A stretch of 43,095 nt of DNA, taken from positions 1-43,095 of the forward strand of contig CAXMPL010000183.1 in the NCBI GenBank assembly GCA_964195125.1, read 5' to 3'. The stretch is from an uncultured Kiloniellales bacterium (GTDB taxonomy: Bacteria > Actinomycetota > Acidimicrobiia > Spongiisociales > UBA5794). Below are positions 3,322-42,997 of this stretch, one piece after another. Both the position numbers and the translations under genes were made by a program. Every line of letters begins with the position of its first letter. Position 1 is the first letter of the stretch. The notes under the pieces were generated by a model. It was not told where the DNA came from, did not search any database, and saw only the letters and a program-made list of their open reading frames with translations.

Positions 3322-3342
3322 GAGTCGCGAGTCGCGAGTCGC
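3322..3342 (+). repeat. Tandem heptamer array (GAGTCGC)x3
   Basis: Three perfect head-to-tail copies read directly. The same unit recurs at 39955-39975 (reverse complement), 42788-42816 and 42959-42972 (reverse complement). Confidence 0.9.
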
Positions 3343-3396
3343 AGGCCGCCCGTTGAGTGAGCAGTCGGGCTGGGCTGCGACGCGCCAGAAGCGGAC

Positions 3397-3442: not shown

Positions 3443-3517
3443 CGTAATACGTAATACGTGATACGTAATACGTGGTTTGTGATACGTAATACGTATTGCC
3501 TACGTAGTAGGCAATAC
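3443..3517 (+). repeat. AT-rich tandem heptamer array (CGTAATA-type, about 8 units) ending in an 11-bp-stem palindrome
   Basis: Units read as CGTAATA CGTAATA CGTGATA CGTAATA CGTGGTT TGTGATA CGTAATA CGTATTG. The palindrome is GTATTGCCTAC-gta-GTAGGCAATAC (3493-3517). The local AT-richness contrasts strongly with the window. Confidence 0.9.
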
Positions 3518-3561: not shown

Positions 3562-4056
3562 ATGGCCCGCGCACTTGTGCTCAATGCAAGTCTCGAGCCG
3601 CTGTCGGTCGTTCCCGTTCAGCGGGCGCTGGTGCTCGTCCTTGCCGACCGTGCCGAGGTCGTCGTGTCCAACGGCGTGGTATGGCACTCCGAGCACATAA
3701 CGATGGCGTCGCCATCTGTGGTGCAGCTTCGCCGATTTGTTGCGGTGCCCTATGCGAGGCGGGTTCCTGTGAACCGGAGAACCGTCTTCCATCGCGACCG
3801 CGACGCCTGCCAATATTGTGGGCGGCAGGCTGAGAACCTGGACCACGTCATTCCCCGTTCGAGAGGGGGCGAACACACGTGGCGCAACGTGGTCGCCGCC
3901 TGCCGTCGGTGCAATACGCGCAAGGGAGGCAGAACTCCTAAAGAGGCGGGCCTCCAGTTGAGACGCAACCCGCGGGTGCCGCCGAGGGATAGCTGGGTCG
4001 CAGCCGCGCTCGGCGGTATGCCGGATGCGGAGTGGGCGCCCTACCTCAAGGTCTAA
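3562..4056 (+). CDS. Standalone HNH endonuclease (164 aa)
   Basis: HNH core CQYCGRQAENLDHVIPRSRGGEHTWRNVVAACRRCNTRKG. No SD. TAGCCT (TANNNT) lies 6 nt upstream of the ATG, so the mRNA may be leaderless. Confidence 0.85.
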   Translation: MARALVLNASLEPLSVVPVQRALVLVLADRAEVVVSNGVVWHSEHITMASPSVVQLRRFVAVPYARRVPVNRRTVFHRDRDACQYCGRQAENLDHVIPRSRGGEHTWRNVVAACRRCNTRKGGRTPKEAGLQLRRNPRVPPRDSWVAAALGGMPDAEWAPYLKV

Positions 4057-4091
4057 GCTCGCGCACCGGTCGGTGACCGGATCGCGCCCTC

Positions 4092-4256
4092 TTTGCGGAG
4101 CCTCTATTTTTCCCGCTCTTGCCGCCTTGCGGCGGGCCGCTTGGGCCACGGCTCCGCAAATGGTTTTTCAACACAGACCGGATCGCTCCCGATTGCGGAG
4201 CCTCTATTTTTCCCGCTCTTGGCTACGGGCCGCTCGCGCTGGGCAGCGGCCTACGG
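4092..4256 (-). repeat. Structured GC-rich intergenic repeat, locus 1 (one full core plus one partial core; core reads on the minus strand)
   Basis: Core reverse complement at 4107-4157. Inverted 10-11-mers are TTTGCGGAGCC 4092-4102, GGCTCCGCAAA 4150-4160 and TTGCGGAGCC 4193-4202. Partial second core at 4203-4256. The locus lies between the convergent HNH and thioesterase genes. Confidence 0.9.
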
Positions 4257-4262
4257 GGGCAC

Positions 4263-4760
4263 TTACTCGCTGTTGATCCTGACCAGAACCGCAGAGCCTT
4301 TGGCGGTCACCTGATCGTCGACCCATAACTCGGTCTCGACGATCACTTTGCGGATCGAGCCGGGTTCGATGTCCGCCAGGTCTGAAGGAGCTCCCTTGTC
4401 AAGTAGGGCGCGCCCTACGAGGCGCATCGGGGCCAGCGGCGTCGGCGCCAGATAGTCCACCTCGAGGTGAGCGGTGACAAACCGTGGCGCCGGGTCGCTC
4501 CCGATCGTGCCGCCCTCAGCCTGCATAGCGAGGATCGCCGCCGAGCCGGTTGAGTGACAGTCGATGATCGACGCGATCAAGCCACCGTAGGTCGAGTCGA
4601 CATAGGCAGTATGGAACGGCTCGGGTACGAACTCGGTGAGCGTCCTAGTCCCCTGGGGTCGTGTCTTGATCTGATAGCCGGCATCGTTGAGCCGTCCGCA
4701 CCCATAGCAGTGCGCCGCTGGCTCGTCGTACATGTCCTGGATGGCGATCGATTCGGTCAC
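4263..4760 (-). CDS. Hotdog-fold (PaaI-like) thioesterase with N-terminal Cys-pair
   Basis: 165 aa. N-terminal CYGCGRLNDAGYQIK followed by a hotdog-like region (YGGLIASIIDCHSTGSAA). The family call is by resemblance only. Confidence 0.6.
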   Translation of the reverse strand: MTESIAIQDMYDEPAAHCYGCGRLNDAGYQIKTRPQGTRTLTEFVPEPFHTAYVDSTYGGLIASIIDCHSTGSAAILAMQAEGGTIGSDPAPRFVTAHLEVDYLAPTPLAPMRLVGRALLDKGAPSDLADIEPGSIRKVIVETELWVDDQVTAKGSAVLVRINSE

Positions 4761-4811
4761 CGGCGCATGATGGCAGACACGGCACCGTCACGCACCCTCG
4801 CATGGCTCGCT

Positions 4812-4976
4812 AGATCAGTCGATCAGTAGCAAGAGGCTCCGCACATGGCGCGCGATCCAGTCTCTGTTCGCGAGGCTATTTGCGGAGCCGTGGCCCGAGC
4901 GGCCCGCCGCGAAGCGGCAAGAGCGGGAAAAAAGCTCCACCTCTGTCGATACGACCGGTCACCTATCGGTTTGCGT
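4812..4976 (+). repeat. Structured GC-rich intergenic repeat, locus 2
   Basis: GATCAGTC GATCAGTA lead-in, GGCTCCGCA 4835-4843, loop, TGCGGAGCC 4881-4889, 50-nt core 4882-4931, and a tail ...GACCGGTCACCTATCGGTTTGCG. Confidence 0.9.
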
Positions 4977-4981
4977 CCTCG

Positions 4982-5749
4982 CTACTGCTCTACTTTTTCC
5001 GCGATGGCTTCGAGTGCGGGCGTCGCGATCCCGGCGCTGCGTGCGAAGCGAAGAGCCCGCTCCAGACGGCGTGGTGCGCTCCTGCCCGTTGCGCCGTGGT
5101 CGGGGTCGGCGTCGAAGGCGGTAACCATCGCATCCATCGCCCTTTCCCGATCTAGCGGCTCCCCGACTAGGTGCTCTTGGATATCGAGCACCTCGGCGGC
5201 CACCGGTCCCGCCAGCTCGGGATGCCCGTTCCACAGCTCTGACACCGTCCCGCCCGTCTGCATGCCGCCGATGTTTGCGGTCAGGATGTACAGGTTCTTG
5301 GCCACGAGGGCGTCGACCAGCTCGTCACGAGGGATGACCTTTGCCGCAATGCCGAGCCGATCCAACGCTGTGGCCACGAGTTCCGCCTGGGGCCCGGCAA
5401 CGAGGGTGGGGACGATTACCTTGACCGGTGTACCCGGCTTCTTCTCGAACCAGACGGAGGCAACGGTCGGGTCTGCGATCCCGTGTCTCATCCAGTCACG
5501 CGGGAGCAGTTCATTCTGGATCAGACCGACGCGAGGGCGCCACATTGCAGGAAGGCCGTCAAGCGTCTCATCCAGGTCGGCTTCCCCGACGGTGACCAGG
5601 ACCAGTGCGGGGTCGGGGACGGTCGTGGCGGCGTCCTCCATCGAGGTATGGCGGAGCGCGGGATAGACGGGGTATCCCACACTCAGGAAGGCCCTGGCGA
5701 ACACCCCACCCATCTCTCCCAGCCCGACAACGACAATCGGCCGCTCCAT
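4982..5749 (-). CDS. NAD(P)-binding Rossmann oxidoreductase (ketopantoate-reductase-like), 255 aa
   Basis: I trim the 363-aa track ORF to the internal ATG (MERPIVVVGLGEMGGVFARAF, a GxGxxG motif). The upstream 108 codons run through repeat locus 3 and the mraZ promoter region and look non-coding. Confidence 0.55.
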   Translation of the reverse strand: MERPIVVVGLGEMGGVFARAFLSVGYPVYPALRHTSMEDAATTVPDPALVLVTVGEADLDETLDGLPAMWRPRVGLIQNELLPRDWMRHGIADPTVASVWFEKKPGTPVKVIVPTLVAGPQAELVATALDRLGIAAKVIPRDELVDALVAKNLYILTANIGGMQTGGTVSELWNGHPELAGPVAAEVLDIQEHLVGEPLDRERAMDAMVTAFDADPDHGATGRSAPRRLERALRFARSAGIATPALEAIAEKVEQ

Positions 5750-5780
5750 GGCGCAGAGGCTACCCGGCCCGGGCCACCGT

Positions 5781-5943
5781 CGAATCAGTGGTAAGAGGCT
5801 CCGCAAGAGAGCCCGATCCGGTTTCTGTCGCAAGGCCTTTCGCGGAGCCGTGGCCCGAGCGGCCCGCCGCGAAGCGGCAAGAGCGGGAAAATGGCTCCAC
5901 TTCTGTCGAGACCGGCCGGCGTCATCGCGAATCAGTGGTAAAG
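5781..5943 (+). repeat. Structured GC-rich intergenic repeat, locus 3, flanked by a 14-bp direct repeat
   Basis: 50-nt core at 5842-5891. GGCTCCGCAA at 5797-5806 pairs with CGCGGAGCC at 5841-5849. CGAATCAGTGGTAA occurs at 5781-5794 and again at 5928-5941. Confidence 0.9.
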
Positions 5944-5968
5944 CGGGGGTTGTCGGGGGCCGATAAGG

Positions 5969-6030
5969 TTGACAGGTGGTAGATAGTGGGCCATAGTGGC
6001 GACCTGTGGAGGATGGTGACCGAACCGTGA
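5969..6030 (+). promoter_or_regulatory. Putative mraZ promoter (TTGACA -35, CATAGT -10) overlapped by a 10-bp-phased GTGG direct-repeat array (candidate MraZ operator)
   Basis: TTGACA at 5969-5974, a 17-nt spacer, then CATAGT at 5992-5997. GTGG starts at 5976, 5986, 5996 and 6006, and GTGA at 6016 (exact 10-bp phase). A further GTGA at 6027 is 1 nt out of phase. Confidence 0.55.
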
Positions 6031-6045
6031 TGGAGGCGCAGACGC

Positions 6046-6477
6046 GTGTTTCTTGGGGAATACACCCATGCACTCGATGCCAAGGGGCGGATTGTGATGC
6101 CCAGCAAGTTCCGAAAGGGGCTGGAAGCAGGGTGCGTCGTCACCAAGGGTCAGGAGCGCTGCCTGTACGTCTTTTCGATGGATCGGTGGGAAGACGAGGC
6201 AGGTCGCGTGCTCTCTCTCCCAAGAACAGATCGGCGGGCCAGGAACTTCTCGCGGTCCTTCTTCGCCTCGGCGACGGACCAGCGTCTCGATGGGCAGGGG
6301 CGGATTCAGCTCCCAGAGGCGCTGCGGACGTACGCCGGGCTGAGGAAGGACCTGGCGGTAGTGGGCGTCGCCGATCACATCGAGATCTGGGCGACGGACG
6401 TGTGGGAATCGGTCGCCGCCGAAGCCGACGAGTACTACGCCGGGATCGAGGAGGTGCTGTCGGAGGATGGAATATGA
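6046..6477 (+). CDS. mraZ: Transcriptional regulator MraZ
   Basis: 143 aa, starting MFLGEYTHALDAKGRIVMPSKFR, with a duplicated SpoVT/AbrB-like half (DGQGRIQLP). GGAGG lies 9 nt upstream of the GTG start. Confidence 0.95.
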   Translation: MFLGEYTHALDAKGRIVMPSKFRKGLEAGCVVTKGQERCLYVFSMDRWEDEAGRVLSLPRTDRRARNFSRSFFASATDQRLDGQGRIQLPEALRTYAGLRKDLAVVGVADHIEIWATDVWESVAAEADEYYAGIEEVLSEDGI

Positions 6478-6582
6478 ACGAAGTCTCTTGGTCTGGTCTG
6501 TGGTCAGCCCCCCGGATGCCATTTGGAAGGCCCCTTACTCCGCCCGCTTCCATGGTGGCGCCAGCGTTCCGGGGGGCTGACC

Positions 6583-7518
6583 ATGGGTCAGACCAGCTCG
6601 ACCTATCACAACCCTGTGATGGTGAGCGAGGTGGTGGACTTCATGGAGCCCGTCGCGGGCGGCATCATTGTCGACGGGACCTTCGGCGGCGGGGGTCACG
6701 CCCTTGCTCTCCTGGATCGGTTTCCCGAGGTAACAGTGATCGGAATCGATCGGGATCCCGACGCTATCGCCAACGCCCCCGTCCACCCGCGCCTGTCTCT
6801 GGTCCAGGCCAACTTCGCCGAGCTGATGGAGGTGGTCGCCGGTGAACGTGGCACCGAACCATCTGATGGTCCTCATGTCGACGGCGTACTTCTGGATCTC
6901 GGCATCTCTTCGCATCAGGTCGATACCGCGGAGCGCGGCTTTTCGTTTCGGCGCGCTGGTCCATTGGACATGCGGATGGGGCCCGATACCGCGCTGGACG
7001 CCTCAGAATTGGTCAACGAGTGGGACGTGGATCGCCTCACATCCATCTTCCACGACTACGGGGAGGAGCGTTTCGCACGCCGGATCGCCCGCGCCATCGT
7101 CGCAGCACGCCCTGTCGATGACACCGAGAAGCTCGCTGCCGTGGTCGCAGATGCGATCCCTGCCGCAGCGAGGCGACCGGGCCATCCGGCCAGGAGGATC
7201 TTCCAGGCCCTCCGGATCGCGGTCAACGATGAACTGGGGGCCCTCGCCGCTGGGTTGGATGCGGCGATCGGAGCAATCCGGCCAGGAGGCAGAGTCGTGG
7301 TGATCTCATACCACTCCCTCGAAGACCGCCTGGTGAAGCAGCGCTTCGTAGCAGGAGCTGCGGGGCGCACCTTCCCCCCCGATCTCCCAGTGCGCGAATA
7401 CGGCGACGCTGCTGAGCTGCGCCTTCTGGGGCGCACACTCCCGAGTACCAAGGAGATCGAAAAGAACCCGCGGGCTCGGAGTGCGGTGCTGAGAGCGGCG
7501 GAGAAGGTGACGTCTTGA
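6583..7518 (+). CDS. rsmH: 16S rRNA (cytosine1402-N4)-methyltransferase RsmH
   Basis: HNPVMVSEV..DGTFGGGGHA SAM motif and SYHSLEDRLVK. I prefer ATG 6583 (GGGGGG upstream) over the track's TTG 6523. Confidence 0.9.
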   Translation: MGQTSSTYHNPVMVSEVVDFMEPVAGGIIVDGTFGGGGHALALLDRFPEVTVIGIDRDPDAIANAPVHPRLSLVQANFAELMEVVAGERGTEPSDGPHVDGVLLDLGISSHQVDTAERGFSFRRAGPLDMRMGPDTALDASELVNEWDVDRLTSIFHDYGEERFARRIARAIVAARPVDDTEKLAAVVADAIPAAARRPGHPARRIFQALRIAVNDELGALAAGLDAAIGAIRPGGRVVVISYHSLEDRLVKQRFVAGAAGRTFPPDLPVREYGDAAELRLLGRTLPSTKEIEKNPRARSAVLRAAEKVTS

Positions 7519-26917: not shown

Positions 26918-27070
26918 GCGTCAGCCCAGAGGCTCCGCAAAATGTTGCGCGATTCGGTCCGTCGGCGACACCGTTTGCGGAGCCGTGGCCCGAGCGGCCC
27001 GCCGCGAAGCGGCAAGAGCGGGAAAATGGGACCACTTTCCTCGAAACGACCGGTCACCCACCGATTGCGC
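26918..27070 (+). repeat. Structured GC-rich intergenic repeat, locus 4
   Basis: GGCTCCGCAAA 26931-26941, TTTGCGGAGCC 26974-26984, 50-nt core 26977-27026, and a tail ...GACCGGTCACCCACCGATTGCG. It lies between the divergent ileS leader and the DUF167 gene. Confidence 0.9.
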
Positions 27071-27102
27071 GCTCTTGGTGCTGCAACGGGTAGCGTCCGA
27101 CG

Positions 27103-35080: not shown

Positions 35081-35085
35081 CCACC

Positions 35086-35106
35086 CAGTTTCCAGTTTCC
35101 AGTCAA
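35086..35106 (+). repeat. Tandem heptamer CAGTTTC CAGTTTC CAGTCAA
   Basis: Read directly. It fills most of the 31-bp gap between convergent dnaE and the ArsA-like gene. Confidence 0.8.
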
Positions 35107-35111
35107 GCCCA

Positions 35112-36179
35112 TCACTGGTCGATCACCGCATCGAGATCAATACCGTCGAGGAGTGCAATCAGCGATTCCGCATCGGTCAAGGGGACGGGTACCCACGGAA
35201 CGGCGATGAGGGGGACCCCGTAGCGGTCGGCGAGTCCCACCATGGCAGCCGACTGGCGCCTGGCCTCACCGCCCCAGTTCACCAGGTTCTTCGTCAGCTC
35301 GGCTCGGACTGCCGGGTCGGGGACGTTGGGGATCGGCAGCAGGGCGGCGTCGGCCCAGGCCGTCGGTAGGGCGCGGTTGAGGATGATGGCGGCCGGCTTC
35401 ACGTCGGTTTCGGTCAACTCCTCGAAGAAGCGAACAGCCTCGGCAACGGGTGCGGGATCGGCTGTGGTCACCACCAGCGTGGTCGCTTGCTGTAGATACC
35501 GCTGCATCGTGTGAGCCCTCGCCGTCAACGCGTCGTACATGGTCCGCAGATCGAGCAGGAACTCGGCGACGTCCTCGAGTAACGGTCCGCCGAGCACGCT
35601 ATCGGCGACCTTGAGCAGCGGCCTTCCGGTGAATCGATACAGGAATCGGCGGCCGGGCAGCTGGGCACCGGTCAGCCAGTGCAGCAGCCTCCCCCCCACG
35701 AGATCGGCTGTTCTTGCTGGGGCGAGATAGAAATCAAGACCACCAGCCGACGGCGGGGTATCGATGACGATGCGGTCCCAGCTCCCGGACTCGATGAAGA
35801 TCGACATTGCCTCGGCAGCGGCAAAGGACTGCGCGGCAGGGAATCGATCGGCCAGGGCTCGGAAGTACGGGTTCACCAACAGGCGGTCTGCGATCTCCGG
35901 CTCGCTGTAGCGATGTACGATCGCTTCCCATGATGCGGTAGCGTCGAGCATCGCGGCCCACACGCCGGGTGCGTCGATCACCGGCACAGGATCCCCACCG
36001 AGGCTGGTCAAATCGAGGGCGTCGGCGAGCCGCTTCGCGGGGTCAACCGTCATGACCAGGGTACGTGTGGTGCGAGAGGCGACGGCGATGGCCAGCGCTG
36101 CCGACAGAGTGGTCTTGCCAACTCCTCCGGCTCCGGTCACGACGACCACCTTTGTTCCGCTCACAAGAGCCGCTCGCAT
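35112..36179 (-). CDS. ArsA/Get3-like P-loop ATPase (second of pair)
   Basis: 355 aa, VVTGAGGVGKTTLSAALA deviant Walker A. Overlaps the upstream partner by 19 nt. Confidence 0.8.
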   Translation of the reverse strand: MRAALVSGTKVVVVTGAGGVGKTTLSAALAIAVASRTTRTLVMTVDPAKRLADALDLTSLGGDPVPVIDAPGVWAAMLDATASWEAIVHRYSEPEIADRLLVNPYFRALADRFPAAQSFAAAEAMSIFIESGSWDRIVIDTPPSAGGLDFYLAPARTADLVGGRLLHWLTGAQLPGRRFLYRFTGRPLLKVADSVLGGPLLEDVAEFLLDLRTMYDALTARAHTMQRYLQQATTLVVTTADPAPVAEAVRFFEELTETDVKPAAIILNRALPTAWADAALLPIPNVPDPAVRAELTKNLVNWGGEARRQSAAMVGLADRYGVPLIAVPWVPVPLTDAESLIALLDGIDLDAVIDQ

Positions 36180-37024
36180 TCATCGGCAAGGCGCTCCGCG
36201 ACCTCTGCTGGTGTCCGCATGTCGAACAGGTAGGGGAGCCGTGGATCGTCTGGCACGGCGTCGAGCCACTTCCTTTGCTGTGCGGTGAGGTCGCTGTGCA
36301 GCAAGCCCGCGTCCCTGGCCTCCGATGGATCCAGCCGTTCGATAGTGGCGCGAGACGCTTCCAACGGGTCGAAGACGCGATTGGCGAGCACGCCGGCAAT
36401 GAGGATCTGACGCTCCTTGTCGATCTGGGCGATCGCCTGACGGGTCTCCACGATGGGAAGCTCCTCGGCGGTTGTGACCAGCGCCAATCCACTCACTTCA
36501 GGGTCGCCGAGGGTGGCTTGGAGCCTTGCCGCCTGTTCTCGTACCCCACCGGTTGGGATGAGACCGGTGATCGTTTGGGGGGCGGTCAGGTACGACTGGA
36601 GCTGGCCAAGGGGGGGTGCGTCGACAACCACCAGATCCCAATCTCCCTCCCACACTTCGAAGATCGGCTTTCCCATCGTGACGATCTCCCGTACCCCTGG
36701 AGCGGTGTCGACGAGGACGTTGAGTGCCTTGCTCAACTGAGTGGTAGGGAGAGATCGAGCCGCTCGCACCTGGAGTTTGAGGTATTGGTCGAGGGCGTTA
36801 GCGCGGTCGACAACGGAGGCGAAGAGACCAGGGTGGACCTGCAGCGGTTCGGTGCTGAGGGTCTCGATGCCGAAATGGGAAGCTAGGCCGAGGGCCTCAG
36901 TCATCGCAACGGCGAGAACCCGCCGGCCATGACGGGCAGCGACAATGGCAAGCGCCGCGGTCACCGCTGACTTCCCGACACCCCCCTTGCCGGAGACGAG
37001 CAGCAGGCGTCGGTCGAGCATCAT
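36161..37024 (-). CDS. ArsA/Get3-like P-loop ATPase (first of pair)
   Basis: 287 aa, LVSGKGGVGKSAVTAALA. The paired arrangement resembles M. tuberculosis Rv3679/Rv3680. Confidence 0.8.
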   Translation of the reverse strand: MMLDRRLLLVSGKGGVGKSAVTAALAIVAARHGRRVLAVAMTEALGLASHFGIETLSTEPLQVHPGLFASVVDRANALDQYLKLQVRAARSLPTTQLSKALNVLVDTAPGVREIVTMGKPIFEVWEGDWDLVVVDAPPLGQLQSYLTAPQTITGLIPTGGVREQAARLQATLGDPEVSGLALVTTAEELPIVETRQAIAQIDKERQILIAGVLANRVFDPLEASRATIERLDPSEARDAGLLHSDLTAQQRKWLDAVPDDPRLPYLFDMRTPAEVAERLADECERLL

Positions 37025-37080
37025 GGGGCGGCGATAGTCGGCAGCCGCAAGTTTCCGACGGCGGCGGTGCGCTTGGTGTT

Positions 37081-37380
37081 GGTGAGATCGGTCGATGGGT
37101 TATCGGTTGTCTCGGCGGAGGTGGTCTGATTTTTTCCGCTCTTGCTGCTGCGCAGCGGGCCGCTCGGGCCCCGGCTCAGCGGGTTCTCTTCTTCAGCAAA
37201 AGCCAGGTCGCGTTCCATCCGCTTCGCCTTGGTGAGATCGGTCGATGGGTTATGGGTTGTCTCGGCGGAGGTGGTCTGATGTTTTCCGCTCTTGCTGCTT
37301 CGCAGCGGGCCGCTCGGGCCCCGGCTCAGCGGATTTCCCTCATCGATACCGGCCAGATCGCGTCTCATCCACTTCGCCTC
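37081..37380 (-). repeat. Structured GC-rich repeat, locus 5: two tandem 150-bp units (37081-37230, 37231-37380)
   Basis: The units are near-identical over the first ~105 nt (5 substitutions) and diverge in the last ~45 nt. Each contains a core (37130-37183, 37280-37333, minus-strand orientation) with the GCTGC/GCAGC stem variant. The locus lies between the 73-aa ORF and the ArsA-like pair. Confidence 0.9.
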
Positions 37381-37389
37381 TGGTTGGGG

Positions 37390-37611
37390 TCAGGGACCAC
37401 CGTCGCTGAGTGGAATCCGCAATACGAGCGCGTCGTCATCGACAGACCACTCGGCGCGTCCGATCAGTGAGTAATCCATGTAGTCGTTCTCGGCGCTGGC
37501 GATCCACTGTCGGCGCGCATCACCCTCGAGCGGTGGGATGCCGCGCTCCTTGACGGCGGCGGCGCGGTCTCGGAATCGCTCGACGAAATCGTCGACATTC
37601 AACTGGGCCAT
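37390..37611 (-). CDS. Hypothetical small protein (73 aa)
   Basis: Strong SD (GGAGGA, 4 nt spacer) before the ATG and good GC3 bias. It sits 35 nt downstream of the ThyX-like gene. Confidence 0.6.
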   Translation of the reverse strand: MAQLNVDDFVERFRDRAAAVKERGIPPLEGDARRQWIASAENDYMDYSLIGRAEWSVDDDALVLRIPLSDGGP

Positions 37612-37646
37612 CGCATCCTCCTAGCCGAGCAGGCTAACGGGCTGGA

Positions 37647-39299
37647 TCATTCACCCGGCACTTCGAGGGCGGCCCGTTTTGCCGCAGATCGGCGCTCGGA
37701 CTCGAGTCTGGAGAGCTCGTAGTCGTCGTAATCGACAAACTTCATCCCATCGGCGATGAGGCGGTGCCCGGCGACGTCACCGATGAGCCGGTGCATCTCC
37801 TGAGCCACCCTGCGGTAATCCGGATGCCCGGTGCGCTGGCTGCGCAACTCGGTGAAGTGGAAGGCCTCTCTGGCGTTCATGTGCAGGTAGTACCGGATGC
37901 GGTAGGCGAAGGGGATGACGTACTGGGCGACATCCTCCCCATGAGCGGATGCCACTCTCTCGTGGAGTGCCTCCGCCCGTTCCATGGCCTCTGCCCACTG
38001 TGCCCCGCCGCCGATGTCGGCGATGGAGCCCGGGGTGACGAAACCGTGGACGGGTGAAAGGCGCTGCCATTCGAGGGTCAGCATCCGGTGGCGCTGCAGG
38101 TCGCGGAAGACCCCGTAATCGGAGAGGACATCGAACCGGTAGAACACCCGCTCCATGGATCGACCCGGCTTGTGCCTCCGGTTGCCACGCTCGCCGATGG
38201 CGGCGCGAATCAACGTTTGCCGGTCCTCGACGGGAAGCCGGCGCACATAGTCGAGCAGTTGATCGTCTGGCAGATCGGAAGCGGAGTACAGCGCAGCTGC
38301 CGCCACCTTGGTCTCGGCGTCCGGATCCCATTCAACGAGCGTGACTTCGTCTCGGTGCTGTGGCGCAAGCCCGATTTGGGCGGCACGGGCGCCGAGTCCA
38401 GCAGCCACAGACGCCAGATAGTCGCTCCACGCTCCGCCTCTATCGGGGACGTCGACTCGTTTGAGGAACGAAGGGATTACCTTGCGCAGCTCGGTGAGGA
38501 TGAGGTCGGAATAGCTGCGCGCCTCGTGCAGGGGGTGGGAACGCATGCGAAGCAGCAGTGCCTCATATGCTTGGCCGCTTGCGAAAATGCCGAGATTGGA
38601 CACAGTGGATGCCGGGAGCAGCCCGCGAAGATCGTCGCACGCCTTGGCTCTGATAGTGGAACGCCAGACGAAGCTGGAATCCCCCTCCTGTTGTGGGAAC
38701 AACGTCTCGTAATACGGAACCGCACGGGCCACGAGGGATGAGTAGGCATCGAACAGCCAATCCATTTGCTCCACGTAGTCGTCGCCGAGGGTGGAGCCTG
38801 CTAGCTCGGTTGGGATGTGATAGCGATAGCGAGCTCCGAGCTTCCGGTCGTAAAAGATGTAGCGAGTCGACTCCTCGAGGTAAGAGCCGAGGCGTCCCCA
38901 TTCGAGGACCTTGGTGAGCAGGTTGGAGGCTTGTTCGCAGGCGATGTGCGCAGCACCCAGTTGGGCGACCGAGTCGTCCCCGTACTGGGTGAATACGCGG
39001 TCGTAAAGTCGCTCGGCTCGCTGCAGGTCGACTATCGGATCGGCGCCATCGAGTTGCCCGGCGATCGCCTCCAACCCGGCATCGGCGTCGGCGACGAATT
39101 CATCGAGGAAGAGGCGCCGCACCGATTTCGGTGAGCGGCTGTAGCGTGCGAACAACGCACCTTTCACCACCTCAGGCAGGTTGACGACCGCATAGACCGG
39201 TCCATCGAGCTCGGTGAAGAACCTGCCGAGCACGGCGCGCTCGTCGTCGGTGAACGTCTCGACGTGGTAAGCCGGCGGGGGAAGGATTGTGGTGGTCAT
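37647..39299 (-). CDS. Fused double-domain ThyX-like (FAD-dependent thymidylate synthase family) protein, 550 aa
   Basis: The N-terminal half has YGDDSVAQLGAAHI and WGRLGSYLEESTRY (ThyX motif lacking RH). The C-terminal half has FRDLQRHRMLTLEWQRLS and NAREAFHFTELRSQRTGHPDYRRVAQEM (ThyX-like C-terminal helix). Confidence 0.7.
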   Translation of the reverse strand: MTTTILPPPAYHVETFTDDERAVLGRFFTELDGPVYAVVNLPEVVKGALFARYSRSPKSVRRLFLDEFVADADAGLEAIAGQLDGADPIVDLQRAERLYDRVFTQYGDDSVAQLGAAHIACEQASNLLTKVLEWGRLGSYLEESTRYIFYDRKLGARYRYHIPTELAGSTLGDDYVEQMDWLFDAYSSLVARAVPYYETLFPQQEGDSSFVWRSTIRAKACDDLRGLLPASTVSNLGIFASGQAYEALLLRMRSHPLHEARSYSDLILTELRKVIPSFLKRVDVPDRGGAWSDYLASVAAGLGARAAQIGLAPQHRDEVTLVEWDPDAETKVAAAALYSASDLPDDQLLDYVRRLPVEDRQTLIRAAIGERGNRRHKPGRSMERVFYRFDVLSDYGVFRDLQRHRMLTLEWQRLSPVHGFVTPGSIADIGGGAQWAEAMERAEALHERVASAHGEDVAQYVIPFAYRIRYYLHMNAREAFHFTELRSQRTGHPDYRRVAQEMHRLIGDVAGHRLIADGMKFVDYDDYELSRLESERRSAAKRAALEVPGE

Positions 39300-39372
39300 A
39301 AGGCGAATGACATCAGTGTGATTCGAGACGGTAGCAGCATGTCAACCTGCCCGTCGGGGTACGCTGCGCTGC

Positions 39373-39645
39373 GTGGTCATCCTGCTGAGAGTCGTCCAAG
39401 CGATCCTGCTCGCGGTCGTCGCTGCAATCGCCGCAGTGCCGCTATTCCTCGTATTCGATCTGGTCTCAGGCGGAACGGCACTGGGGCTGTGCCCGAGCGG
39501 GATCGCCAGGTGTGAGCCTGGATATTTCAGCGGCATCGAGCTATTCGGAATCCTGCTCGTTGCTCTGTTCATTGCCATCGGAGGCGTCGGACTGTGTGCG
39601 GCAGGGATCCGACGCGTTCAAAGTACTCAGGGCGCGCACCGATAA
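39373..39645 (+). CDS. Hypothetical small membrane protein (90 aa, 2-3 TM)
   Basis: Hydrophobic segments VVQAILLAVVAAIAAVPLFLVF and IELFGILLVALFIAIGGVGLCAAG. GTG start with no clear SD. Confidence 0.4.
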   Translation: MVILLRVVQAILLAVVAAIAAVPLFLVFDLVSGGTALGLCPSGIARCEPGYFSGIELFGILLVALFIAIGGVGLCAAGIRRVQSTQGAHR

Positions 39646-39882
39646 GTGACCGGTCGTCTCTCGATAGAAGTTGAGCCTCTGTTTTTCCCGCTCTTGCCAC
39701 TGCGTGGCGGGCCGCTCGGGCCCCGGCTCAGCGGACTTCTCTGATCGTTGATGCCCAGTGGTCGCATCCGCTTCGCCTTCGTTTCCCGCTCTTGCCGCTT
39801 CGCGGCGGGCCGCTCGGGCCCCGGCTCCGCAAATGGCTTTTCGCAAAAGAGACCGGATCGTGCGCTATTTGCGGAGCCTCGA
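39646..39882 (-). repeat. Structured GC-rich repeat, locus 6 (two cores, 100-bp spacing)
   Basis: Cores at 39682-39733 (GCCAC/GTGGC stem variant) and 39782-39832 (1 mismatch to the consensus). GGCTCCGCAAA at 39823-39833 pairs with TTTGCGGAGCC at 39868-39878. Confidence 0.9.
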
Positions 39883-39895
39883 GTACCAAGTAATC

Positions 39896-39975
39896 GAGTC
39901 GTCAGCCATCAGTCGTCAGTCCTCAGCAACAAACGTTGCGTTGAGTTTTGGCTCGCGACTCGCGACTCACGACTC
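39896..39975. repeat. Heptamer arrays GAGTCGT CAGCCAT CAGTCGT CAGTCCT CAGCAAC ... GCGACTC GCGACTC ACGACTC around a small hairpin
   Basis: Read directly. The central hairpin is GCAAC-aaac-GTTGC at 39926-39939. The outer GAGTCGT (39896-39902) is complementary to ACGACTC (39969-39975). The arrays lie immediately upstream of nth. Confidence 0.8.
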
Positions 39976-39991
39976 GTAAGCTTCGCTACCC

Positions 39992-42816: not shown

Positions 42817-42954
42817 AAGCCAGAATCTCTGGGATGGGGGCTCGGAAACTGGGGACCCGTGTCCGGCCACCGGCAACGAGGAACCGAAGATCAAGCAACC
42901 TCATCGCAGCCGTCGGTGGTACTCGCCCCTGGATGGAGAGATACGAGCATCGCT

Positions 42955-42972
42955 ACTCGCGACTCGCGACTC
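42955..42972 (-). repeat. Heptamer array (reverse complement) tACTC GCGACTC GCGACTC
   Basis: GCGACTCGCGACTC at 42959-42972 is the perfect reverse complement of GAGTCGCGAGTCGC at 42803-42816. Confidence 0.85.
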
Positions 42973-42997
42973 GGGACCTGGTCGCTAGTCTCGCTCG

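Follow-up and report, generated by a model that had tools for sequence, protein, structure and literature searches.

Is a short hairpin whose two arms differ from copy to copy held in shape by selection and, if it is, in which nucleic acid does it fold and to what kind of element does it belong? The question is raised by a set of repeats in a 43,095-nt stretch of DNA (contig CAXMPL010000183.1, positions 1 to 43,095, of assembly GCA_964195125.1; hereafter the window, meaning this whole stretch) from an uncultured bacterium that is deposited as Kiloniellales and placed by GTDB in the Acidimicrobiia. A first-pass annotation, made from the letters of the window, had described a 5-bp hairpin in the core of these repeats, proposed that both arms change together while the loop drifts, and taken this as a sign of selection on a folded form, either RNA or single-stranded or cruciform DNA. 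The follow-up analysis presented here confirms that pairing is maintained through matched changes on both arms, and the covarying hairpin is almost certainly real.

The hairpin and its core in the window

The repeats share a 35-nt core of the form CCGCTCTTG-[insert]-GGGCCGCTCGGGCC, in which the hairpin always lies within the two constant flanks; the orientation of a core is given below as F (as on the + strand at 39782) or R (the complement of F). Nine cores of this form are present in the 43-kb window, six with F on the + strand and three with F on the - strand (Table 1), and eight of them have a 3-nt loop on a perfect stem of 5 bp, the stems being GCCGC/GCGGC in five cores, GCTGC/GCAGC in two and GCCAC/GTGGC in one. 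In the ninth core (4213-4240) GCTAC replaces the hairpin. The sequence GCCGCNNNGCGGC occurs five times in the window, as against 0.46 occurrences expected from shuffles. Every hairpin position that the first-pass annotation had cited was re-read and is right. Because the hairpins at 37144 and 37294 share a 150-bp tandem duplication, the window contains only two independent double changes, and taken by itself it is suggestive of covariation, being neither conclusive nor significant alone.

Covariation among related cores

Further cores were obtained from two scans, one of a genome collection, in which the two flanks were anchored and the hairpin was left as N{9,17} (at least 119 loci), and one of metagenome contigs, in which the flanks were combined with the right-hand context MCGGCTC of the window type (at least 118 loci). 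Pooling of both scans, with one or two flank mismatches allowed and duplicates removed, gave at least 335 unique cores; all counts for the two classes of core described below are among the matches listed in the two scans. The loci from the genome scan belong nearly all to metagenome-assembled genomes (MAGs) labelled Acidimicrobiia or Acidimicrobiales, including Candidatus Aldehydirespirator, Candidatus Poriferisodalis, sponge bins and soil bins. The family is also carried by complete chromosomes, such as OZ244866.1, OZ242033.1, OY759762.1 and NZ_OZ241968.1. Among the matches listed, the contigs nearest to the window in element type (L004, L081 and L085, from JADFIY01 and JACZST01) are labelled 'Acidobacteria bacterium' (isolates B3T1L10 and B11T1B8) and one match (L112) is labelled Bifidobacteriaceae, labels that may reflect mis-binning or mis-classification.

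The cores split into two classes. Class I (n = 219) is the window type with a Watson-Crick hairpin, and class II (n = 116), which makes up the majority in the genome scan, has G-TT-CGC-tNc-GCT-CA-C at the hairpin position and is conserved in sequence, with no covariation. A perfect hairpin that uses the entire insert is formed by 175 of the 219 class I cores, compared with 0.4% of shuffled inserts, and these perfect hairpins comprise 19 distinct stems of 4-7 bp, among them GCCGC, GCTGC, GCCGCC, GGCGCC, GGCC, GCCAC, GTCGCC, GCAGC, GGCCC, GGCGC, GCGGC, GCCGGC and GCTCGCC. Uncompensated copies, which the first-pass annotation had expected to be many if the fold were not conserved, are few: one stem mismatch is found in only 14 of the 219 cores, the single-mismatch intermediates including GCCGC/GCAGC and GCCGT/GCGGC. 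A further 17 class I cores, the GCTAC type, have no hairpin. This hairpin-less sub-family carries GCTAC, GCAAC, GCTAG or GCTAT instead, often together with the right flank GGGCCACATCGGGCC, and it includes the window core at 4213-4240 as well as cores in L167, L169, L173, L207, L227, L236 and L238.

Insert lengths of 10, 12, 14 and 16 nt all occur, and two alignments of equal-length inserts were compared with shuffles. In the alignment of 12-nt inserts (46 distinct cores), 97.8% of the cells are paired, versus 84.7% after shuffling, double changes occupy 22 cells versus 2.6, and the covariation score is 0.344 versus 0.086, which none of 500 shuffles reaches; both-sided changes are seen in three of the five pairs, the pair 11-19 taking CG, UA, AU and GC, and when the 3' partner was slid by one to three columns as a control, only 20-68% of the cells were paired. 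The alignment of 14-nt inserts (22 distinct cores) gives the same picture, with 96.2% of the cells paired (74.2% shuffled), 25 double-change cells (7.8 shuffled) and a covariation score of 0.559 (0.154 shuffled), again reached by 0 of 500 shuffles. Many copies have the same stem through amplification of sub-families, and the number of independent events therefore lies in the tens, not the hundreds. It is this sample of at least 335 cores that bears out both the joint change of the two arms and a constraint on a folded single-stranded form, be it RNA or DNA. Outside the central helix, the canonical sub-family varies too little for covariation to be seen.

The number of stems and of insert lengths bears directly on two readings in which no fold would be required. 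A palindromic double-stranded operator for a dimeric regulator should be conserved in sequence, but the stem has 19 sequences, and because it changes in this way an operator acting as a fixed double-stranded site is excluded. A constraint on the repeat as coding sequence could be read from a 115-aa open reading frame (ORF) at 37021-37368 on the - strand (peptide PLSRGPSGPLRSSKSGK), which spans both tandem 150-bp units of block 5 (Table 1) with a repeated peptide ...NPLSRGPSGPLRSSKSGK..., overlaps the start of the neighbouring ArsA-like gene by 4 nt, is called as a gene in L120 (8073-8420) and scores weakly positive for codon bias (12.2); no Pfam family matches it, however, and coding capacity is ruled out by the length variants, which shift the frame, and by the occurrence of copies in both orientations and in all intergenic contexts. 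The ORF is probably a spurious call that arises because the repeat is codon-like in composition on this strand; predicted ORFs that overlap cores number 25 on the R strand and 2 on the F strand. Both readings are effectively refuted, and the probability left to them is negligible.

Loop chemistry and the proposed folding strand

The loop, which had been described as drifting, turned out not to vary freely. On F it is T-N-C in 162 of the 175 perfect class I hairpins (TTC in 121, TGC in 26, TCC in 11 and TAC in 4), corresponding on R to G-N-A (GAA 121, GCA 26, GGA 11 and GTA 4), and C-G closes every one of the 175. The R-strand loops of class II are likewise GNA in 100 of 103 cases (GCA 73, GAA 18, GGA 7, GTA 2). 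By sequence match, the R strand thus carries the d(C-GNA-G) motif, a GNA triloop closed by C-G; written as DNA, the hairpin is d(GCCGCGAAGCGGC), its complement is d(GCCGCTTCGCGGC) and the class II version is d(GTGAGCGCAGCGAAC). The d(GCGNAGC) mini-hairpin is restricted to GNA loops and melts at temperatures (Tm) of 76, 73, 71 and 70 °C for N = A, G, C and T, respectively, with the RNA counterpart r(GCGAAAGC) melting at 39 °C (PMC13037366), and its stability is dependent on C-G as the closing pair (PMC3201870). Stable DNA hairpins are also given by pyrimidine-GA-purine 'CGAG blocks', which contain tandem sheared G.A pairs (PMC10085684). Class II reads GT-GA-GC-GNA-GC-GA-AC on R, with GGC-CGAG-C...G-CGAG-GCC in its right arm, so that pyrimidine-GA-purine tetranucleotides are opposed on R in the manner of a CGAG block, the same positions being T.C and C.T mismatches on F; this TC/TC 'mismatch' (GA/GA on R) is retained in 100 of 103 cases, in which only the middle base of the loop changes.

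In terms of predicted folding energy, the right arm is more stable on R in 88 versus 9 elements of class II and in 109 versus 37 of class I, and the energies of the central Watson-Crick hairpin and of the whole element do not differ between the strands. Single stem mismatches include four that would be wobbles on F and four on R; such a lack of G.U asymmetry would be predicted in the absence of selection on one particular RNA strand. Judged from the sequence, the constrained form may then be a hairpin of single-stranded DNA, or a cruciform, on the R strand and not an RNA, a proposal that we consider about evenly balanced. It is argued for by the match of loop and closing pair to a DNA-specific hyperstable motif, by class II, which makes sense only with G.A pairs on R, by the absent G.U asymmetry and by an orientation that is not bound to transcripts.

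The last of these points concerns the surroundings of the cores, which were classified with a home-made codon log-odds (codon-bias) gene caller that was trained on the collected loci and covers 87% of the window; a caller based on third-position GC content (GC3) covered only 60% and was replaced. Among 228 classifiable cores, 145 lie between co-directional genes (57 in F and 88 in R orientation, p = 0.012), 42 between convergent genes and 41 between divergent ones. The modest R excess could be related to the direction of transcription or of replication.

RNA-level roles in cis, as stabiliser, terminator or processing site, have been reported for REP (repetitive extragenic palindromic), ERIC and Correia elements, and the hairpin discussed here could similarly act in RNA, co-transcribed as a 3'-end stabiliser, a terminator independent of a U tract or an RNase processing site, with selection exerted at the host locus. 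Most cores would indeed be transcribed, considering the co-directional and convergent ones together, and the R excess in co-directional contexts, the greater stability of the right arm on R, which holds for RNA as well, and the stability of tandem G.A pairs in RNA can all be accommodated, as can the folding of whole elements on either strand (both strands of the element at 4833-4980 are more stable than shuffles, with z = -4.1 and -3.4). The F strand also has, at 37105-37126 and 37253-37278, a G.U-rich stem with a T run behind it that resembles a terminator. Set against this are the 41 cores in divergent promoter regions and the commonness of both orientations, which are not predicted by a strictly RNA-level 3'-end function, as well as stem mismatches with no G.U versus C.A asymmetry, a GNA/TNC triloop that is unlike the GNRA and UNCG tetraloops typical of stable RNA hairpins, and the far lower stability of the mini-hairpin as RNA than as DNA (PMC13037366). 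An intrinsic terminator was considered and rejected, as no T run follows the hairpin 3' on either strand and only the variant left arm (37105/37253) is terminator-like. Rfam searches at gathering thresholds returned no matches in the window and none in 15 related loci; a search of 4000-6000 in E-value mode gave chance-level matches only. An RNA-level role is, on these grounds, possible but somewhat unlikely.

It has to be considered as well that joint changes of the two arms could arise with no structural selection, if intrastrand template switching at quasi-palindromes in replication, or gene conversion between copies, templated one arm on the other and a few variant master copies were subsequently amplified. 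Stem variants do track sub-families, the GCTGC/GCAGC stem accompanying the variant right arm GGCTCAGCGG in the window, L081 and L203; the single-mismatch intermediates mentioned above exist; and in 15 copies that were recovered through their arms the hairpin decays along with the flanks. Such a mutational route leaves unexplained the invariant C-G closing pair (175 of 175) and the GNA loop in which only N varies, the perfect stems of four lengths, and the fact that the core is the best conserved part of the element, the arms of which differ between distant Acidimicrobiia lineages. It also needs hairpin formation in single-stranded DNA and to that extent overlaps with the constraint proposed above. 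As an explanation that dispenses with selection on structure it appears decidedly unlikely.

Architecture and probable mobility of the element

The alignment of the window copies with their relatives, from which 39 full units were extracted, defines a canonical unit of about 147 nt (range 139-157) that reads on F as (TWA) GAGCGCGCACCGATAGGTGACCGGTCGTCTCGACAGAAGTGGAGCCATTTTCCCGCTCTTG - hairpin - GGGCCGCTCGGGCCAC - GGCTCCGCAAAT(~30-nt loop)ATTTGCGGAGCCTC (TWA), where TWA is TAA or TTA. Its termini, the left end GAGCGCGCAC and the right end with the reverse complement GAGGCTCCGCA (...TTGCGGAGCCTC in F orientation), are imperfect inverted repeats of about 11-14 nt, and AAGAGCG of the left end can also pair with CGCTCTT ahead of the hairpin; because of these pairings of the ends and of CGCTCTT a series of stem-loops is predicted along either strand of the element. 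Class II elements have termini and core in common with class I, and differ in their arms. Repetition and swapping of modules result in blocks of one to three cores, the multi-core blocks being direct tandem modules with a period of 98-150 bp; in the window, blocks 1 and 6 have two cores, and the right arm of block 5 is a variant, GGCTCAGCGGAT...ATCCGCTTCGCC.

The hairpin very probably belongs to a mobile mosaic repeat, as is indicated by presence/absence differences between otherwise similar contigs. In an empty-site comparison of five public contigs that encode a ThyX-like protein beside block 6, three (L120, L121 and L123) lack the whole of this block (39626-39882); elsewhere they are 99-100% identical to the window, and they have in its place a (C/G/A)TACTTG heptamer array of six copies. 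Compared with the orthologous L199, L203 has gained a core-plus-arm module, and its first hairpin is GCTGC-ttc-GCAGC versus GCCGC-ttt-GCGGC in L199. An all-against-all comparison of the collected loci brought to light three indels only, one of which is unrelated to the element; three other comparable sites of the window are in the same state in all public contigs found, and the contigs spanning 4263-4760 all have the same element copies. Among 43 single units, the 3-nt flanks are identical in 8, versus 2.9 expected (shuffle maximum 9), and where TAA or TTA stands on both flanks, seven units are concordant and none discordant, so the flanks are likely to represent a 3-bp TWA target duplication.

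The element at 5795-5927, the left arm of which is truncated, lies between the two copies of a perfect direct repeat of 14 bp, CGAATCAGTGGTAA (5781-5794 and 5928-5941), far exceeding the 3-bp duplication seen elsewhere, which suggests that this copy arrived or was rearranged by another route.

Candidates for a larger mobile unit were tried and discarded. An autonomous insertion sequence (IS) with the same ends is not seen in the 1.7 Mb of collected loci: paired ends 500-3500 bp apart enclose housekeeping genes and no transposase, and solo ends are chance matches or decayed copies, none of them beside long ORFs. A putative composite transposon around thyX (37081-39882) would enclose the double-domain ThyX gene together with a 73-aa ORF, and both genes are kept in place in sister strains that lack the right block. 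The homologue of the thymidylate synthase ThyX itself (37647-39299, - strand) is 550 aa long, about twice the usual length, contains two Thy1-domain stretches and appears to be a fused or duplicated form.

The architecture also bears on the idea that each element is a gene with its own promoter, encoding either a member of a family of small structured non-coding RNAs or an RNA component of a larger system. A row of several hairpins, one of them a covarying helix, and a core conserved across the class would be in keeping with it, but hundreds of copies, tandem arrays, variable modules, presence/absence polymorphism and apparent flanking duplications are traits of a mobile repeat, no consistent promoter-like or terminator-like signal accompanies the elements, the non-central helices are too conserved for covariation, and there is no Rfam match. 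This idea is very improbable.

Genomic context and further features of the window

The window is a piece of housekeeping chromosome with an HNH nuclease gene, mraZ and a division and cell-wall cluster, dnaE, nth, two genes for ArsA-like ATPases and the double-domain thyX, and the elements in it are exclusively intergenic (Table 1).

Table 1. Repeat blocks, single elements and their parts in the window (F and R as defined in the text; hairpins as read on the + strand)
Feature	Position	Strand	Description
Block 1	4057..4245	+ (F on +)	Between convergent genes: HNH endonuclease gene 3562-4056 (+) and 165-aa gene 4263-4760 (-)
Block 1, core 1a	4113-4147	+	Hairpin GCCGC-ctt-GCGGC at 4121-4133; preceded by hybrid left arm
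Block 1, right-arm hairpin	4150-4202	+	GGCTCCGCAAA...TTGCGGAGCC
Block 1, core 1b	4213-4240	+	GCTAC where hairpin expected
Single-unit element, 148 nt	4833..4980	- (F on -)	Between two - strand genes; right-arm hairpin 4835-4889; core 4892-4926; hairpin GCCGC-gaa-GCGGC at 4906-4918; left arm 4927-4980
Element copy	5795..5927	- (F on -)	Divergent region between 255-aa gene (4982-5749, -) and mraZ (6046-6477, +); right-arm hairpin 5797-5849; core 5852-5886; hairpin 5866-5878; left arm truncated
Single-unit element, 146 nt	26929..27074	- (F on -)	Divergent intergenic region; right-arm hairpin 26931-26984; core 26987-27021; hairpin 27001-27013
Block 5, two tandem 150-bp units, 87% identical	37070..37384	+ (F on +)	Between two - strand genes: ArsA-like ATPase gene 36161-37024 (-) and 73-aa ORF 37390-37611 (-)
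Block 5, first core	37136-37170	+	Hairpin GCTGC-tgc-GCAGC at 37144-37156
Block 5, first variant right arm	37173-37228	+	GGCTCAGCGG...ATCCRCTTCGCC, after first core
Block 5, second core	37286-37320	+	Hairpin GCTGC-ttc-GCAGC at 37294-37306
Block 5, second variant right arm	37323-37378	+	GGCTCAGCGG...ATCCRCTTCGCC, after second core
Block 6, two cores	39626..39882	+ (F on +)	Missing from near-identical public contigs
Block 6, left end	39630-39643	+	GGGCGCGCACCGAT
Block 6, core 6a	39688-39722	+	Hairpin GCCAC-tgc-GTGGC at 39696-39708; variant arm 39725-39777
Block 6, core 6b	39786-39820	+	Hairpin GCCGC-ttc-GCGGC at 39794-39806; right-arm hairpin 39823-39878

Two further kinds of repeat were observed. 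An inverted repeat of 28 nt (6489-6516 and 6568-6595; TGGTCTGGTCTGTGGTCAGCCCCCCGGA / TCCGGGGGGCTGACCATGGGTCAGACCA), with arms that are 86% complementary and 51 nt apart, lies in the gap between mraZ and the next gene, a 16S rRNA methyltransferase gene (Pfam assignment in L124), and is unrelated to the element. Short intergenic tandem arrays of heptamers, some in inverted pairs (GAGTCGC x3, CGTAATA x7.6, AGTCGTC x4.3, CTCGCGA x3.6 and TCGCGAC x4), are found at 39885-39976, 3322-3342, 3443-3495, 35085-35103 and 42950-42977; the arrays at 3322-3347 and 39950-39975 are 88% complementary, and a 142-bp indel between L140 (1323-1465) and L223 is bounded by GCGAGTC arrays. These heptamer arrays look like a second repeat system, unrelated to the element.

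Proposed model

In the model that we propose, which as a whole is more probable than not though by no means assured, the hairpin is the central module of a non-coding, non-autonomous mobile repeat of about 147 nt that is abundant in Acidimicrobiia, and the best reading of this repeat is as MITE-like (miniature inverted-repeat transposable element) in its ends and insertion behaviour and BIME-like (bacterial interspersed mosaic element) or BOX-like in its modular build. The constrained form would be the hairpin extruded in single-stranded DNA, or a cruciform, with the R strand carrying d(C-GNA-G) and, in the class II sub-family, additionally tandem sheared G.A pairs. The element would depend on this fold to propagate or maintain itself; in single-stranded DNA the hairpin could, for example, be recognised or processed, conceivable roles being recognition by a mobilising enzyme, priming and protection, and it would not be required for a sequence-specific contact with duplex DNA. 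Mobilisation would probably be brought about in trans by a DDE transposase that makes the 3-bp TWA duplication.

Several observations weigh against this model. Its two halves fit poorly together, because cut-and-paste transposition by a DDE enzyme gives an internal hairpin of single-stranded DNA no obvious role. The TWA duplication is found in only about a fifth of the copies, being absent or decayed in most, and the polymorphic site of block 6 does not have it and is flanked by heptamer arrays with GTACT, present on either side, as a candidate duplication. The search of the 1.7 Mb of collected loci revealed neither an autonomous element nor a transposase whose ends match. About 8% of class I, the GCTAC type, persist and spread with no hairpin, and the presence of this sub-family at many loci implies that the hairpin is dispensable for the persistence or copying of some copies. 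The gathering of cores via near-exact flanks favours young or constrained copies, and the context statistics come from the home-made gene caller. Finally, the nearest-neighbour energies of the Watson-Crick hairpin are equal on both strands, and the argument for the R strand therefore depends on loop chemistry known from the literature; the class II hairpin is barely stable in energy models, at -1.7 kcal/mol on R and 0 on F.

A different weighting of the same features would make the core a dedicated folded module of single-stranded DNA, or RNA, that is recognized by a protein, as part of a REP/RAYT-like or a new hairpin-dependent system of mobilisation or genome maintenance in Actinomycetota; the TWA flanks and the inverted repeats at the ends would then be of secondary importance. 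This reading seems unlikely. Structured mosaic repeats are already well known in other phyla, and no new principle is required for the MITE-like mosaic repeat that we prefer.

Soils, sediments and sponges harbour abundant Acidimicrobiia, a class known almost wholly from MAGs, and searches of the literature on REP or MITE repeats of this class found no description of the element or of any other repeat family in it. At a density of nine cores per 43 kb of housekeeping DNA the element can be expected to break assemblies, causes spurious gene calls, and it offers a marker for strain typing and for insertion dynamics. It also provides an unusually clean natural case of covariation in which the loop chemistry points to DNA over RNA, and thereby a testable case for selection on the structure of single-stranded DNA in a chromosome, for which the DNA mini-hairpin signature is a good experimental handle.

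Comparison with known systems

The comparison with REP/BIME or MITE elements that the first-pass annotation had suggested is apt, as the element shares features with both. MITEs include the Correia/NEMIS elements of Neisseria and the Tourist-like elements, which derive from IS5 or PIF/Harbinger and have TAA/TTA duplications, and 3-bp TWA duplications typify a number of elements of the IS5 and PIF/Harbinger groups, together with the MITEs derived from them; by analogy, the TWA flanks offer a lead towards an affinity of IS5 or PIF/Harbinger type. Like MITEs, which are smaller than about 500 bp, the element is short, at about 150 nt, non-coding and high in copy number, has terminal inverted repeats and a probable short A/T-rich (TAA/TTA) flanking duplication, is polymorphic in its insertion between strains, lies in intergenic positions beside stop codons and folds stably as a whole unit. 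It differs from them in lacking any sequence similarity and in having only short, imperfect inverted repeats; the 1.7 Mb of loci yielded no cognate transposase, the element is a mosaic with a variable number of modules, and its best conserved part is not the termini but an internal one, the covarying hairpin within invariant flanks.

REP/BIME elements of Enterobacteria and Pseudomonas are mobilised by RAYT, a Y1 HUH transposase that acts on hairpins of single-stranded DNA. With these the element has in common that it is extragenic, abundant, present in both orientations and forms mosaics with other motifs, and that it is centred on a short GC-rich hairpin proposed to fold in single-stranded DNA. 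In contrast to them, it has the flanks CCGCTCTTG and GGGCCGCTCGGGCC and no GTAG-type head, its units are direct tandem modules with a period of 98-150 bp in place of inverted REP pairs, and, where REPs have none, it possesses inverted terminal repeats and putative flanking duplications. No RAYT (Y1 transposase) gene was noticed in the loci inspected, whole genomes not having been searched. The BOX elements of Streptococcus pneumoniae (boxA-boxB(n)-boxC) resemble the element in being modular, with a variable number of central modules, intergenic and predicted to fold stably, although their sequence and phylum are unrelated and no covarying mini-hairpin has been reported for BOX.

Natural examples of d(GCGNAGC) occur at the replication origins of single-stranded DNA phages and in the hairpin promoters of the phage N4 virion RNA polymerase, which have a stem of 5-7 bp and a 3-nt loop (PMC13037366). 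Unlike these phage mini-hairpins, the element is chromosomal and repeated hundreds of times, and the likeness is one of motif only. Within that motif it is close: the R strand reads ..GC-GNA-GC.., the closing pair is C-G in all perfect copies, the stem is 4-7 bp long, all four GNA loops are represented with GAA as the commonest, and the geometry is that of the N4 promoter hairpins.

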